A DNA stretch of 64,000 nt from the NCBI GenBank assembly GCA_040768745.1, contig JAXGMI010000002.1:32001-96000 (forward strand), given 5' to 3'. Shown piece after piece: positions 39,001-45,000 of this stretch (its first letter is position 1; the number at the start of each line of letters is the position of its first letter). Position numbers: made by a program. This stretch comes from Desulfomicrobium sp. GTDB lineage: Bacteria; Desulfobacterota; Desulfovibrionia; Desulfovibrionales; Desulfomicrobiaceae.

Positions 39001-42000
39001 GACCTTGGCCAGATTCCGCTCGCCGTGCCAGCACTCCAGGCAGTCGTGGATGACCGAGCCGAAGGCCAGATTGGGGTCGCGCTCGAGCGGCACCAGCTCG
39101 TCGATGTAGCGCCACTTGCAGGCCATGCGGCAGTTGCGGAACAGCCGCCACATGGAATAGGTGGTGGTCATCAGCTCGCTCATACCGCCACCCCCGCTTC
39201 GGCGGCGGGCGCTGCGCGATGCTTGGAGGCACAGGCGCAACCCGACGGCTGGGTACGTTCGATCAGGACCGAGCGTTCGCCGTATTCCTTGGTGGCGAAG
39301 CCGGTGAAAATGCGGGCGAGGTCGCTGCCGACATCGGTGGAGGCGTCGATCACGCAGGTGCGTCGGGCCTTGTCCAGATTGAACCGGCTCTCCATCCGCA
39401 CACGGGAACGGCCATGCAGGCTTTCGACGGCCAGCATCGCCAGCATGAAAGTGTCTTCCAGTTCCTGGGCCGGGACCGACTCGTCAAAACGGTACTTGTA
39501 GGTGTCGTGAGTCATGGTTGAACTCCTCTTTTGTTCAGGTTCTGATTTCCGAGGCCCCGGATAGCCGCACCATGCGGCACGGTGCTTACTTACCGGAGGC
39601 GGAGCCGATGCGTCGGAGATCACAGGTAGTCCTCGAGCCCGGCCTCGCGGAACGCGTCCCGGAGCTTGCTCAGCCGGTCGTAGAGGGTGGTTCTGGGAAT
39701 GCCCATTTCCCGGGCGACTTCGGCCATGGTGCTGTCGTGCAGGCGCAAGCACAGATCCCGGAGCTCTTCCGGCAGCGAGGCGATGGCCTGGCCGAGATCC
39801 ATGCGGATCTCATGGGCGAGGCGCTCTCTTGTTTCGCGTGTGCCGCCCCCAAGAGAGCCTTCGCTATCCAGGAAGTCGATCCGCTCGGTGCTGTCGCCCT
39901 CACCGTTGTCGAGGGGTTCGTTGAGTGATGTTTGGCAGAGCCGCCAGTCCCGGCATTGGGCGAACCGGGCCTCCAGAATGGTGGAGATGTGACGTTCGAC
40001 GATCCGGGCCATGAAGGTGGTCTTCTTGGCCTTGGCGGGATTGAAATGCCGCATCCGCTGCAGCAGATCGATCATCAGTTCCTGTTCGAGGTCGGGTCTG
40101 TCGTCCTCGGTGAATCCGGCCTTGCCTACGAGTTGACGTGCTTTGTGCCGAATGAGGTCGGCGGCATACTTGTCGATGCCGTCGTAAGAATTCTGTGAAA
40201 CCATCGGGGCCTCCTCGGAGCGAGGAGGAGGTCCGCGTGGGTGTCGGCACGGGCCAGATCACAGGACAAAGCTGTCGCGTGGGCGAAGGGGTCGCAGGTA
40301 CGCCGCCAATTGCCGTATTCGGCTCGGCGACACCCACAACAGCCTCCGCCATGCGTCCAGCTTGTTGTCCAGTGTCTAAGGGTTCAGGTCGTTACGTGTT
40401 CAGGCTGCCCGTTCCTCGATGCGCATCAGGAACGGGAGACCGTGCTTGATCTCGAGCAGGCAGACTTTTCCGCTGCCCATCTGCGCGAGGTGCTCCAGCA
40501 GCGCCACGACCTCTTGCTTGAGGATGAAGTCATCCTGGTCGCGCTCGGGCCGGGGACCGCTCTGTCCGCCCAGCTTGATCTCGCGCTCGATGACCGTGTC
40601 AGGGGTGAGTTCCGGCTCGCCGTCGCGGACCGGAATGTTGGTGATGCGGCCGAAGTTGATGTCCTGCATCAGCTCGATGAGTCGCCGCTTCGGTGGGGTG
40701 AGATGTGCTTTGTTGACTTGTGCCACTGCCAGTCTCCTTGTTCGGAAGTTCTGGCGCGCCCGGTGGCCAACCCTGTGCTGACCAATAAAAAACGCCGGAT
40801 GTCGCGCCTTCAAAGCTGAAGGGGCGACATCCGGCGTCGTGCATCACGACAAAGAGCGTCGTGGGAAATTTTTTTAAACTTTTTTTGCCTGGGCTATCCG
40901 ATCACGGGCTTTGTTTCCCATGATATGGATTCGGAGGGCTGATATCTCATCTCGCCACCGAATTCCAGTGAAGACTCAAGGTGTTCTGCAAAGGCAGTCA
41001 TTCTGGCATCCTTGAGATTCTTCAAGGTGCGACGAACGGCCTTGCTGACATTATCTCGTGGCTTTCGAAGGGGATCGTTCGCGTGCCTCAGTTTTCCACC
41101 TGGCCCTATCATTGCCTTTACTTGAGAAAGGAGCATCTCCCGATTCTCATGTAAATCATCGAGACGTGATAAATCGGAACATTCGCGGGAATTTTCTATT
41201 TCTTGATCGATTCGGTTCAATTCGTTTCTGATTTCAGCAGCGGCCTGGTAATCGCCAACTTCCAATCCGCTGGACTCGAGCGCCTTTCTCGTTTCCTCGT
41301 CCAAAGTACCTCCGTGGTAGAGATCCAGCACCGAGATATAGCGGCCAGGTGCGGCAAGCAGGAGGGTGAGATATTCGACACCCTTTTGCCTCTCAAATGG
41401 GACTGATTCCCCACCTTGGAATCGAATTTGCCATCTGTCTCCGCATTGCCGGAAAATATTTGCCGGTAAAGGATCTGTAGATGCAGCAAAATGGTTATCG
41501 GGAAACAATATTCGGAATGGCGATTCATTCCGTATCCGCTTAAGGCGGCCGCCTTCCTGGAAGGCAACTTCCTCGCAAAGTGCCATAAACAGTGCAGCTC
41601 TTTGATTCATGAGGCGTTCAGCGCTTCTGCTTAGCAGTTTTCGAGTCGGTGCGAGCAAAACGAAAGGGTTCTGGTTTTCTAAACAAAGCTCACGGACGGT
41701 TTCAGTCATATCGTCCTTTTTCTCTGGGAGCGTCAAATAGACCGGAAACACTGTGCCGGTAGAAGGTAGAAAGTCGCCCAATCGCCAAGTATGGCTCAGG
41801 ATAGGAATAGGCTCTTCGCGGTGCTGAATGTCGAGTGCTCTGCATATCGCCTTATTGACGGCCGACTGTTTGAGCCTGTAGATGAAAGTCTGTTGCCGGA
41901 CAAGAGGAACCGCCCCAGCTTCCTTCTCCTGGCAGACGGCTACGATTTCGGAGTCCGAATGCACAACGACCTTGCGTGGGCATCCCAGTCCACAATCGGT

Positions 42001-45000
42001 TGGACAATCCACAGCAGTCGCGTGATTCTTGGTTAGCTGAAGAAAGTGGTCCCGAAACAACGGATACCGATCCCAGCCGGAGAGCGCGTGATCCCAATCG
42101 AACAGCGCCGCCGACTTTCCAGGCAGTGCTTCCAGGAACTCCCAGACAGGGTCATTCATCCAGATTCCCTCTGTTCCCCGTAATGAAGCCGCGCAAAAAG
42201 AGCCAACGTTCCAGGATTACGGAGTCATCGTCACACCTGAAGCTTGCCCTGTTCCCTGAACTAATAGTGAGCGACCTTGGCTTCTTAACTTCTTTAAATT
42301 TCACATAAAAACTAGCCTGTGTAATTCGTCCATGTTGGGGAAACTGAAAGCCTCGATCTCGGAGTGAAGCGAAAAAATCCTCAGATCTCCTGATTTCCTT
42401 GTCTTTGTAAGCTCCTGCGTAAGAGAGCTGAACTTCTTTAAGCTTTACGTATTCAAGGCCATCAACATCCTCACACGATAGCGATTCTTCTCCCACCGTG
42501 CGCAATGACTCTAAATTAAATTGGCTTCTCTGGCTGAAAAAATTCTCATCACCAAAAAGATGTTTTCCAAACATCTTTCGATACAGTTCCTTTTCTCCTT
42601 TCGTTACTGCATGCATTCTTATTTCGCCAATCAGGGGATTGTATATGAGAACATCGAATTTCTCTGGTCTGAAGTATTGGCTCTTAGACTTGCCAGATTC
42701 GATAACGGACTCACGATTGAAAGAGCTGCCATGCCTAACTACGATCCATATGTAGTCATCCTTAGAAAATATTTTCACTTTGGAATATTTGCCTTTTCGT
42801 TTCTTGGCAAACCATTCATCAAGGTCGTTTTCCAACGCGGTTATTCTTTCTGAGGATGGAATTGTGAAAACTGGCAGAGGAGTAACCACCGTTTTGAAAT
42901 ATTCGAATGAGCGTTTATTGAGAGGCAATAGTTCAGCGATTACTCTTTCGATGATGGATTTATCCTTCATCCAAACCTGAATCGCAAGATCAGCAGGAGT
43001 GGCGGTTTCCTCAATCTCGGTGTCGAGTTCTGTCCCGTATATTTCTGCCTGAACTGCTTCAAACCCTTCTTGAGTCGAGACCTCGTTCACATAATACAAT
43101 GCCTCTGCCAAATCGCCCGGGGTCGAATTGTCCGGGGTCAATAAAACGTGACTGAGCTCGTTGTAATCCAGGCCATCTTCCTCCTGGATTGGTGGCAACT
43201 CTACGCCGCGAGCTGAAAAATAGGCGGCATGAGGCTCCAGAAAGGCAATGAGATGCTTCCTGTCGATTCGCCGGAGCATTCCCGGCTTCGAAAAGCGGCG
43301 TAGGGTGAATGATGCCATAAGTTACTCCTCTGTTTTGTCGTTACTCTTCCATATCTGTCTCGATCAATTCCGTTTCCATCCAACGATCTTGCCCAGCACG
43401 CGAAGGTCATCCTCCGGCCTGACTCGGATCTTCCGTACCTCCGGGTTCTCGGGCACCAATTCGATAAGCTCGTCTTTGATTCTCAGCCGTTTCACGGTCA
43501 CTTCGTCGTTGAACAGCGCTACAACGATGTCTCCGTCCTCGGCGATGGGCTGCTGCCGCACGATGATCAAATCACCATCGTTGATACCGGCACCGACCAT
43601 GCTGTCACCCACCGCACGGAGTGCGAAGTGCTGACCGGAACGAACGACGTCCGATTCGACCAGTACTTGGCCGGTGACGTTCTCTTCCGCCAGGATGGGG
43701 CAGCCAGCTGCCACCATACCCACAACAGGTACTGAAACCAGGGAGGCAGCCATCTCGCTGGGACGGCGGGCGACGGCAATGCCGCGAGACTTCCCGTCCT
43801 CTCGCTTCAGGTATCCCTTGCGCACTAGTTGGTTGATCCGGTCGTGGGCACTCGCCGGGCTGATTTCAAAGATCTCGCTCAGTTCCTTCACCGTTGGAGG
43901 GAAGCCCTTGGCATCGACAAAACGACATATCGCTTCGAGCGTTTTCCGCTGCAACGGCGTTATCTCATCCGTCTTCGCTTTGCCCATGGCGTCTCCATTT
44001 CTGTTGAAAGACAAAAAGGCGCAATGCGCCAGCAAACCCTAATAATATAAACCTGATGCATATCAGGTCAAGAAATAATCTCACACCTGATTTCCGACAC
44101 TTCCATGAGCCCCTCGGTAGGTAAGGCCTGAAGAAAGCCGGTTTGAAACCGGACGAGCAGTTAGAAACCAGATAACCGACCAGAGGCGGAGCTGAGGCGG
44201 TTGTGGGTGCCATCGAACGCGCATCCCGACCGCCACCGTTTTCTGGCATCCACACCATCCAGCCCCCCGGTCCCACCGGAGGTGTTCGATGTTGGATGTA
44301 CAGGAAATGAATGATGTACCGGGGACGGATGACCTTGGCGAAAACGGCAAACCCGGCCGCCTGTCGGGTGAGGCGAGGCTCCAGTCAGCCGCCTCCATTC
44401 TGGCCACGGCGATCCTGCGCCGAAAGGCAAAAAACGCATGTGTGGGCAATGAGTTAGAGGTTTTCGAAGATTCTTCCCCTGTGCTCGGAGAAGGACTTGA
44501 TTCATTGCCGGAACAGAGCATTCATTCATGACAACTCGTCCGGAAACCAAAATAAGGAGTTGAAAATGAATGAGTTACAGAACGCCGCCACCGGCGGCAA
44601 GATCCAGGACCGAACCCGAAACTCAGTCCTTCGGCAGATGGCCCTGCTGCAATCCATGTCCCTGGAGCAGCTCCGGGAAAAATGGCTCGACCTCTACGGA
44701 GAAGAGCCACCCCAGTACAAGAAACAATTCCTCATCAAGCGGCTGGCCTATCGCATCCAGGAGCTTTTCTACGGCGGGCTGTCCGAACAGGCCAAGGTCC
44801 ATCTCCAGCAGGCCGCCAAGGAGGACCCGGTCGCCACTGTCAATCGACGCATCCCAGAAGAGCGGAAATCGAACGAAGCGATCCTGCCCGGGACCAGACT
44901 GGTGCGGGTCTGGAACGACCGGCGCTATGAGGTGATCGTCCTTGCCGATGGCTACGAGTTCGAAGGCCGCACCTTCCGGTCGCTCAGCGCGGTGGCCAGG

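Follow-up and report, generated by a model that had tools for sequence, protein, structure and literature searches.

A two-gene cassette behind a LexA-type prophage repressor is a candidate Rex-like exclusion or defence system with an RdgC-fold protein

How the Rex system of phage lambda works has been an open question since Benzer's rII experiments. In lambda (cI-rexA-rexB), as in the actinobacteriophage RexAB-type systems, the gene of a self-cleaving S24 repressor is followed by two accessory genes on the same strand. The second lambda accessory protein, RexB, is a small polytopic inner-membrane protein with four predicted transmembrane helices. RexA binds DNA non-specifically as a dimer, acts in both exclusion and the switch, and has the RdgC/IML3/CHL4 (CENP-L/N) fold, a link reported only in 2024 (PMC11077077). 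Here we describe a pair of genes, A and B (g01890 and g01889 of the initial annotation), in a Desulfomicrobium prophage. All coordinates are positions within the 64,000-nt stretch of DNA that was analysed, hereafter called the window (Table 1).

The gene order resembles that of lambda. As judged from the sequence anatomy, A and B lie directly downstream of an S24-family repressor gene, and the unit adjoins the integration/immunity end of a temperate phage. The repressor, which also matches a PHROG transcriptional repressor, combines a LexA winged helix-turn-helix domain (PF01726, 2.6e-14) with an S24 peptidase domain (PF00717, 1.6e-32), and carries AAG, GDSM, and VKRL motifs, which we take to be the cleavage site, the catalytic Ser, and the catalytic Lys. 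Gene A starts 45 nt past the repressor-gene stop, behind a GAGGAG site and with no terminator in the gap. The start of B, preceded by GGGA, overlaps the stop of A, and the two genes share 8 nt (ATGAATGA). The three genes would thus be co-transcribed as one unit, extending from the palindrome-bearing promoter to a strong terminator. The palindrome has one exact copy in the window, the sole other match containing three mismatches, and may be bound by the repressor. The recomputed ORFs and GC contents (0.449 for A and 0.513 for B, versus 0.622 for positions 34000-40700, 0.601 for the integrase region, and 0.610 for the whole prophage) bear out the overlapping, low-GC pair of the initial annotation. 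At the right prophage end, the homology with sister prophages and RNA-library contigs stops at 47515-47578.

Table 1. Features of the repressor unit and its surroundings (positions within the window)
Feature	Position	Strand	Description
Sigma-like gene	39620-40204		Next after the 109-aa backbone gene; Pfam/PHROG searches
First backbone gene past the cassette	40400..40726	-	109 aa, GTG at 40726; conserved in the lineage (phmmer, most loci)
Intrinsic terminator closing the unit	40787..40837	-	21-nt arms 40792-40812 and 40817-40837, 95% complementary, 4-nt loop, T run
Smaller hairpin near the terminator	40844-40864
Gene B	40894..42159	-	421-aa ORF
Gene A	42152..43318	-	388-aa ORF
LexA-type repressor	43364..43987	-	207 aa, ATG at 43987, GGAGA ribosome-binding site
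Sigma-70-like promoter of the LexA-type gene	44042..44071	-	TTGACC, 16-18 nt spacer, TATATT/TATTAT; consensus match 10 of 12
Putative operator	44052..44067	.	Perfect 16-nt palindrome CCTGATATGCATCAGG, between and overlapping the -35/-10 hexamers
DUF2924 gene, divergent	44497-45090	+	Pfam DUF2924 8e-53; backbone flank of the slot
Large serine integrase	45083-46669	+	Resolvase, Recombinase, Zn_ribbon_recom; PHROG integrase 5e-128; backbone flank
tmRNA gene, right prophage end (integration site)	47508..47898	-	ARAGORN

The likeness to lambda extends to the first accessory protein. In the predicted structure of A (pLDDT 83.9), an acidic, helical N-terminal part (residues 1-130, pI 4.5) precedes a basic body (residues 131-388, pI 9.3) with the two-domain RdgC/CENP-N/IML3/CHL4 fold, corresponding to the base and centre domains of RdgC. 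Foldseek matched the model to CENP-N (1.3e-6) and RdgC (5e-6), and in BFVD the top-ranking matches were to phage proteins carrying the annotations RdgC, recombination-associated protein, or exonuclease (E 1e-6 to 5e-4; TM about 0.3). The likeness to CENP-N/Chl4 and CENP-L/Iml3, which are eukaryotic kinetochore/chromatin proteins, is at the fold level only. A differs from E. coli RdgC (PDB 2owl, 2owy; 10-12% identity) in its 130 extra N-terminal residues and in its phage-borne gene, which is paired with B. It does not match the Pfam RdgC sequence model at E<=10, and to our knowledge its set of conserved polar residues (D110, R195-H196-G197, R202, D222, E295, D314, R348, and D365) has no counterpart in RdgC. 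Nor could a sequence relation to lambda RexA be detected: comparing its sequence with the A profile in hhalign gave a probability of 0.1% over 16 aligned columns. The crystal structure of lambda RexA (8twq) is outside the best 50 structural matches to A and the Foldseek list, an absence that is not evidence of different folds. The initial annotation had proposed a new system with an RdgC-fold sensor. Lambda RexA is a precedent for such a protein (PMC11077077), and we regard A-B as a variant of the Rex type rather than as a system of a categorically new kind.

The second protein is different. In contrast to RexB, B is predicted to be a soluble, multi-domain protein (pLDDT 84.7) with no transmembrane segment (highest 19-residue Kyte-Doolittle mean, 1.11). 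Its Cys-rich N-terminus (C52, C56, C60, and C76) is followed in the predicted structure by a region with a weak likeness to the PD-(D/E)XK fold (about 97-220) and by a winged helix with the OmpR/PhoB-type effector-domain fold (about 232-410), into which a helical hairpin (298-360) is inserted. B does not match the Pfam Trans_reg_C model at E<=10. The PD-(D/E)XK domains of NucS/EndoMS, Can2, Cdn1, and SfsA are among the closest known to the nuclease-like part, and the Foldseek match to EndoMS is weak (3.6e-3). Among 66 representatives of the B family, the catalytic D...(D/E)xK residues are not conserved: 11 retain D129, L, N, E, or I predominate at position 146 and P, S, or R at position 148, and only W22 and W243 are invariant. 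The reading of B as a nuclease is therefore not supported. The C-terminal part of B varies between alleles, from the winged helix to an unrelated C-terminus in the 354-aa forms and HTH_3 in possible distant relatives. As modelled, both A and B look like DNA binders without catalytic motifs.

In searches at E<=10, neither protein matched a component model of PADLOC-DB 2.0.0 or a Pfam family, apart from a UVR motif as the sole Pfam row for B (E 0.11). PHROGs held no family for A or B at E<=0.01, and the PDB sequences held no meaningful match. Homologues are numerous, with 201 for A and 31 for B (weakest match, 3.9e-32). At E<=1e-30 the B profile hit 261 cluster representatives, a number that rises to 10,374 at E<=0.001, many of the weaker matches probably covering the shared C-terminal module alone. 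No member of the family was found in a search of 50,697 GenBank phage records.

How is the pair distributed? We assembled a new collection of 160 loci, half of them from genomes and half from IMG/VR (80 each). In 150, A is followed by a same-strand B homologue, although these counts are not independent because one phage recurs many times in nearly identical copies. Six loci are too short to judge, B lies 2.7 kb from A in L059, split by an insertion, and three have room but lack a full B (L041, L156, and L065, in which B is truncated). The serine integrase, DUF2924, sigma-like, Sak4, exonuclease, and RecD2 genes are also present at nearly all loci, and all 160 belong to one widespread temperate phage lineage, characterized by the serine integrase, tmRNA integration, and a contractile tail. 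The pair was found only inside this lineage. It is sporadic, A being present in 2 of the 60 relatives' genomes searched. The identity of A falls to 33% across the lineage, the pair diverges roughly in step with it, and the GC content of the cassette, although lower than that of the flanks in 68 of 96 loci, is on average only about 1.9 points below it. For these reasons, A-B looks more like a long-resident phage pair than a freely moving defence island.

These analyses reproduced the observations of the initial annotation: the pairing, the numbers of homologues, the fold matches, the absence of Pfam, PADLOC, and PHROG families, and the contigs of 98-100% identity in bins labelled as unrelated phyla (L001-L006). 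Its interpretation was partly supported. The spread over many phyla is really that of one phage lineage, an RdgC-fold protein in a prophage immunity operon has a precedent, and a DNA-cutting module is unsupported, since neither A nor B has a convincing catalytic site.

We next consider the slot that holds the cassette. Among 80 IMG/VR loci anchored on the sigma-like gene of the lineage, 61 were informative: the slot contains A-B in 30, a 262-aa gene with a 700-aa QatC-like protein (PADLOC QatC 3.7e-53) in 16, a B remnant in 1, and other cargo in 14, including PD-Lambda-3_B (1e-83), a HamB-like helicase (1e-37), and an RtcR-like ATPase. Sister prophages share 90-98% identity between 43200 and 47088 and 96-98% below about 40711. 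Within A and the N-terminal half of B their identity is only 62-80%, and over the C-terminal half of B they are non-homologous. In a sludge library, contigs break at 40800 and 44166, where the depth is about 14 versus about 100 in the flanks. Since sister phages with 95-98% identity elsewhere carry a diverged A-B allele, the QatC-like fusion, or other defence-type genes, the slot beside the repressor is an accessory hotspot. Decay of A-B is tolerated, as seen in the split B of L059, the truncated B of L065, and a 31-residue A remnant upstream of the QatC-type cassette in L223. Moreover, B shares its winged-helix and hairpin module (profile positions 230-420) with the QatC-like protein, in which the homologous region is the C-terminal 200 or so residues (E 7e-28, or 1e-75 with an iterated profile). 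Beyond this module the likeness to QatABCD, with its QatB-QatC core, ends: neither A nor the N-terminal domain of B resembles a Qat protein, and no QatA or QatD was seen at the QatC-like slot loci.

The main rival explanation, a rather unlikely one, is that A-B modulates the phage's own lysis-lysogeny switch, like lambda RexA without RexB, and sets the threshold or irreversibility of induction. A would then bind DNA or the repressor near the operator, and B would bind specific sites via its exchangeable DNA-binding domain; in one version A, like E. coli RdgC, would restrain RecA and damp the RecA-stimulated cleavage of the LexA-type repressor. The pair lies directly behind an S24 repressor in 85 of the 149 loci with room, and behind an ImmA/IrrE-type peptidase in at least six others; such peptidases also belong to DNA-damage-responsive switches. 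The resemblance of both proteins to non-catalytic DNA binders and the allelic exchange of the DNA-binding part of B are consistent with this role, as are the reports that RexA stabilises the lytic state and that RdgC inhibits RecA-dependent LexA cleavage (PMC11077077). However, the pair is broken or replaced by unrelated cargo (QatC-like, helicase, and others) in backbones of 95-98% identity, and hence is not an essential switch part. In L084-type sisters, the repressor gene is kept at 90-98% identity while A-B is replaced, so A-B does not co-vary with the repressor specificity there.

It is quite improbable that A-B provides accessory recombination/replication factors, with A as an RdgC-like strand-exchange regulator serving the downstream phage genes. 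The fold of A and its BFVD matches suggest such a role, and the same strand carries, 1.5-9 kb downstream, a recombination/replication module (Sak4, exonuclease, SSB-like, ERCC4, RecD2, and primase); but the strong terminator parts A-B from this module, the pair is attached to the repressor gene, A lacks a Pfam RdgC match, and sister phages with the same module at 96-97% identity hold other slot cargo. A toxin-antitoxin or addiction pair stabilising the prophage is highly implausible, despite the translational coupling, the strict pairing, and the loci with a broken B but an intact A (L059 and L065), because neither protein matches a toxin or antitoxin family in Pfam or PADLOC, both resemble DNA-binding proteins, and they are several times larger than typical toxin-antitoxin components.

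The explanation that we favour, at somewhat less than even confidence, is a Rex-like superinfection-exclusion or anti-phage cassette acting on DNA. Taken broadly, A-B probably blocks rival phages or tunes the dormancy switch of its own phage. We counted the unit anatomy, the slot hotspot, the allelic replacement, the tolerated decay, and the sporadic distribution for exclusion or defence, and counted against it the lack of a recognisable effector or catalytic site in A or B, the lack of a sequence relation between A and RexA, the dissimilarity of B to RexB, the single-lineage, long-resident look, and the state of the LexA-type gene in some sister phages. This gene is absent in L010, L011, L082, and L029, and L162-type phages keep only its DNA-binding domain, which makes both its role as the master repressor and a strict cI-rex analogy uncertain.

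How would such a cassette act? A would form an RdgC-like dimeric clamp or horseshoe, in which the basic body binds DNA and the acidic N-terminal domain restrains the protein. The trigger would be a foreign phage that replicates or recombines, or an SOS response that removes the repressor and raises expression. A would then engage the DNA intermediates of replication or recombination and act with B, possibly by direct contact. Finally, B would bind DNA via its winged helix and block DNA replication or transcription, probably by occupancy or host-factor recruitment rather than by canonical PD-(D/E)XK cleavage.

More tentatively, and with doubt prevailing, A-B may represent a new branch of Rex-type prophage immunity, in which the A clamp senses invader intermediates and signals to a soluble, catalytically degenerate nuclease-fold B instead of a membrane channel. 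The winged-helix and hairpin part of B would be a portable output module, the slot would be an exchange site for defence cassettes, and RdgC-fold sensors would be an old, recurrent means of phage-DNA recognition. Like RexA, A has the RdgC fold and is encoded directly behind a prophage repressor, but the two are unrelated in sequence, and A has a soluble partner predicted to bind DNA. Comparing RexA with A is therefore a natural way to ask whether the RdgC fold serves to sense DNA, to touch the repressor, or both, and what role falls to the partner. The size of the family and its absence from the phage records searched mean that an abundant prophage function is uncharacterised, and the slot provides a ready list of candidate defence cassettes, including the QatC-like fusion that shares a module with B.

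Genes A (388 aa) and B (421 aa), the minus-strand pair behind the LexA-type repressor gene, belong to a prophage that occupies about 45.8 kb of the window and looks complete; the coordinates that the initial annotation had attached to the pair are likewise window coordinates. The prophage encodes structural and packaging proteins (tape measure, baseplate hub, tail sheath, major head protein, portal and large terminase) and a DNA-metabolism set (primase, RecD2-like helicase, ERCC4 nuclease, DUF669 SSB-like protein, Sak4-like ATPase and PD-(D/E)XK exonuclease), followed by a sigma-like factor. 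Its right end carries a DUF2924 gene and a large serine integrase gene, which adjoin the tmRNA gene. The right prophage end is flanked (47508-48071) by this tmRNA gene, whose tag peptide is ANDNYDYAMAA, and by a tRNA-Arg(ACG) gene. A copy of the 47301-47575 segment occurs at the far end of related prophages, consistent with integration into the 3′ end of the tmRNA.

Some structural genes appear as adjacent or overlapping ORF pairs—the tail sheath (7741-8712 and 8737-9222), the tape measure (3278-4756 and 4689-6122) and phrog_6577 (16359-19121 and 18677-20944)—which could be frameshifts, programmed or by decay, or artefacts of crude ORF picking. The prophage also encodes a large DNA methyltransferase (799 aa, 13002-15401; phrog_27806, E 0) and an ABC-type ATPase with AAA_21 (AbiEii-like) similarity (512 aa, 29059-30597), and these may be further accessory or defence-related cargo.

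Features of the A–B unit and the adjoining integration site (window coordinates)
Feature	Position	Strand	Remarks
Sigma-70-like promoter	44071-44042	minus	
Perfect 16-nt palindrome	44052-44067		overlaps the sigma-70-like promoter
LexA-type repressor gene	43987-43364	minus	207 aa
Spacer, repressor gene to A			45 nt; GAGGAG site, no terminator
Gene A	42152..43318	minus	388 aa
Gene B	40894..42159	minus	421 aa
Terminator	40837-40787	minus	21-bp stem and T run; preceded by a small hairpin downstream of B
tmRNA gene	47508-47898		adjoins the integrase region

The anatomy of this unit points to putative co-transcription of the repressor gene, A and B. The ATG of B overlaps the stop codon of A within ATGAATGA, and GGGA precedes it by a few bases. 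The palindrome does not stand out as a genome-wide SOS box: the 3.09-Mb genome has 6 sites of the form CTGAT-N4-ATCAG, roughly as many as expected by chance. Among the sequencing runs of “organism A”, a single contig (about 47.9 kb) spans 34000-47541 at uniform depth, and this may be DNA.

How constant is the pairing of A and B? Using the A profile, we collected 160 loci, 80 from species genomes and 80 from IMG/VR. A homologue of B lies downstream of A on the same strand in 150 of them, a count whose members are not independent because many loci are near-identical copies of one phage. Another six loci leave no room to judge the pairing, and in L059 (11106-14756) B is split by an insertion of about 2.6 kb while A is intact. 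Three roomy loci are without a full B: A has other partners in L041, B is reduced to a 55-residue remnant beside an intact A in L065 (11145-11642), and L156 has none. The side-by-side recurrence claimed by the initial annotation is thereby borne out. Its spread over “many phyla” is not: nearly all loci also carry relatives of the integrase, DUF2924, the 109-aa gene that follows the cassette, the sigma-like factor, the exonuclease, Sak4 and RecD2, and these backbone relatives are present even where A is only 33–40% identical. The shared backbone therefore reduces the many phyla to one phage lineage. Backbones 96–97% identical occur on long contigs (L007, L009-L013, L021 and L082-L091) labelled Desulforhopalus, Desulfobulbus, Desulfocarbo and an Omnitrophota bin, and Cronobacter sakazakii has a recorded A homologue (69% identity). 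Such a spread of labels suggests that the host range is very broad or that bins are mislabelled.

In order to survey the slot between the integrase or repressor gene and the 109-aa backbone gene, we ran a second scan anchored on the sigma-like gene of the lineage, which yielded 80 IMG/VR loci. Nineteen are uninformative: 14 have too little room, and in the other five, all of one sub-lineage, A–B lies beyond the integrase and out of range. The remaining 61 hold A–B (30), a pair of 262-aa and ~700-aa proteins (16), a B remnant (1) or other cargo (14). The ~700-aa protein matches PADLOC QatC in its N-terminal part (3.7e-53) and ends in ~200 residues homologous to B's winged-helix and hairpin module. 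In L162 (3097-6244) this cassette consists of a 77-aa protein reduced to the DNA-binding domain of LexA, the 262-aa unknown and the ~700-aa QatC-like fusion; the same type occurs in L163, L168-L170, L176, L177, L180, L181, L184, L185, L217, L218, L223, L226 and L238. The 262-aa and ~700-aa pair is a possible two-gene variant of the QatB/QatC kind. Among the other cargo are a homologue of PD-Lambda-3_B (1e-83), a HamB-like helicase (1e-37), an RtcR-like ATPase, and CapP/ImmA-like peptidases with two unknown genes behind them. In L202, a PD-Lambda-3_B/Hypoth_Ymh homologue (2058-3110; PADLOC 1e-83) stands between the integrase gene and a LexA-like gene, and behind the latter come two unknown proteins of 423 and 393 aa; remote homology search detected no similarity of these two proteins to A or B. 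In L207, a 391-aa protein may or may not be a remote relative of A (hhalign probability 14.5% over 276 columns), and for a 323-aa protein no remote homology to B was detected.

Base-level comparison of the sister phages shows allele replacement. The L084-type prophages are 90–98% identical to ours over 43200-47088, repressor gene included, fall to 62–80% across A and the start of B, cannot be aligned over the C-terminal half of B, and return to 98% below 40711. The phages with the L162-type cassette are 95–97% identical outside the slot; their homology ends inside the repressor gene (43772) and restarts exactly past the stop codon of B (40893). L223 retains a 31-residue remnant of the A N-terminus upstream of its QatC-type cassette. 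Together, the varied cargo and the allele replacement identify the slot as a hotspot, with A–B as one of its cassettes. Contig breaks fall at 40800 and 44166 in a sludge library, where the depth of this allele is about 14 versus about 100 in the flanks. Six contigs 98–100% identical to the cassette, 2.4–4.5 kb each, were indeed found in bins labelled as unrelated phyla, as the initial annotation had noted; they fit assembly breaks at the cassette edges.

The overlapping, low-GC character described earlier also holds for this copy: GC is 0.449 in A and 0.513 in B, versus 0.622 in the phage genes to the left, 0.601 in the integrase region and 0.610 in the whole prophage. Low GC as a general mark of A–B was rejected and is specific to this allele, since over 96 loci the pair averages 1.9 points below its flanks (lower in 68, by more than 5 points in 19). 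The 14-point drop in the window marks a recent import of this particular A–B allele.

Neither protein has a family in Pfam or PADLOC at E≤10 or in PHROGs at E≤0.01, which agrees with the initial annotation, and neither has a match at a meaningful level among PDB sequences. The word-index search reproduced its 201 A and 31 B homologues, all unnamed; a full profile search with B returned 10,374 cluster representatives at E≤0.001, 261 of them at E≤1e-30. By tblastn, GenBank phages gave no match to A or B, and PLSDB plasmids gave none to A. No fused form of A turned up among proteins of 680–2000 aa, which is weak evidence. In the ESM Atlas, B(1-228) gave nothing usable and A gave only low scores (0.77–0.80); one cluster has GAPS4b_N in 15% of its members, a lead only; Pfam itself has no match for A.

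B had been described as a nuclease with an invariant four-cysteine cluster; the nuclease reading is not supported, and the cluster is not invariant. Among 66 diverse representatives, only W22 and W243 are invariant. The PD-(D/E)XK catalytic motif is missing from this set: 11 of the 66 retain D129, and positions 146 and 148 are variable. The cysteines are movable—C52 is kept in 53, C56 in 15, C60 in 47 and C76 in 62—with many members having more after C76 and a few having almost none; a cluster so common but movable suggests a structural metal site. No transmembrane segment is predicted. The B model has a mean pLDDT of 84.7, and the VIA wide search with the whole model was dominated by coiled-coil matches to residues 298–360. 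B is also modular, as forms of ~354 aa share residues 1–225 and have an unrelated C-terminus. From the missing motif, the movable cysteines and the predicted lack of a transmembrane segment, we read B as a putative DNA-binding protein with a degenerate nuclease-like domain, rather than as a demonstrated nuclease.

A consists of a basic, RdgC-like body (residues 131–388, pI 9.3) and an extra helical, acidic N-terminal part (residues 1–130, pI 4.5). A polar set—D110, R195-H196-G197, R202, D222, E295, D314, R348 and D365—is retained by at least 93% of 60 non-redundant homologues. This is more conservation than we would expect if A were a DNA clamp without any specificity, and the set may mark a ligand or catalytic site. 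In BFVD, A best matches phage proteins whose annotation reads RdgC, recombination-associated protein or exonuclease (E 1e-6 to 5e-4). That the pair is a recombination accessory is improbable. That these two adjoining, overlapping genes form a toxin–antitoxin pair is very improbable.

The closest parallel is the lambda Rex system. According to the article text of PMC11077077, which reports a 2024 crystal structure of lambda RexA, RexA is a dimer that binds DNA non-specifically and, independently of RexB, stabilises the lytic state of the CI–Cro switch; RexB is a four-pass membrane protein, and RexA-like genes of actinobacteriophages likewise adjoin CI-like repressors. On these reported features, A shares with lambda RexA the RdgC fold family and the position by the repressor gene, but by sequence it is not a member of the RexA family (hhalign probability 0.1%), and the RexA structure 8twq was not among the matches listed in structure searches with A. 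Our literature search, supplements aside, surfaced the Rex work alone and no prior description of the A–B pair. The main rival to a cassette directed at other phages is that A–B modulates the switch of its own phage in the manner of RexA, possibly by way of RecA; we consider this less likely.

What is the role of the repressor itself? It combines a winged-helix domain of the LexA type (2.6e-14) with an S24 peptidase domain (1.6e-32), and the AAG, GDSM and VKRL motifs are present, which we take to be the cleavage site, the catalytic Ser and the catalytic Lys. Of the 149 loci with enough room, 85 have a LexA-like gene immediately upstream of A. For 49 loci sampled from the other 64, a Pfam scan of 62 upstream ORFs found ImmA/IrrE-type peptidases in at least six loci and an ArsP permease in two, besides a molybdopterin oxidoreductase (L097) and DUF3124 (L069); the remaining ORFs have no Pfam match. 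Since some sister phages are without the LexA-type gene or have its DNA-binding domain only, it is not certain that this gene encodes the master repressor. The copy in our prophage (43364-43987) is the only full-length LexA homologue detected in the 3.09-Mb genome; other matches (contig C1, 674259-675344) cover the S24 domain only (40% identity, residues 83–206). The host may have its own LexA to rely on, or none.

The observation of the initial annotation is confirmed, and its reading as a prophage defence module is partly supported. Against a simple mobile defence island stand the finding of A–B in this one phage lineage only, the mean GC deficit of only 1.9 points, the lack of an obvious effector activity in the sequence of either protein, the uncertain master-repressor role, and the status of the prophage gene as the sole full-length LexA homologue detected. 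Taking these analyses together, we tentatively favor A–B as a candidate Rex-like accessory cassette that would serve superinfection exclusion or defence by acting on DNA.
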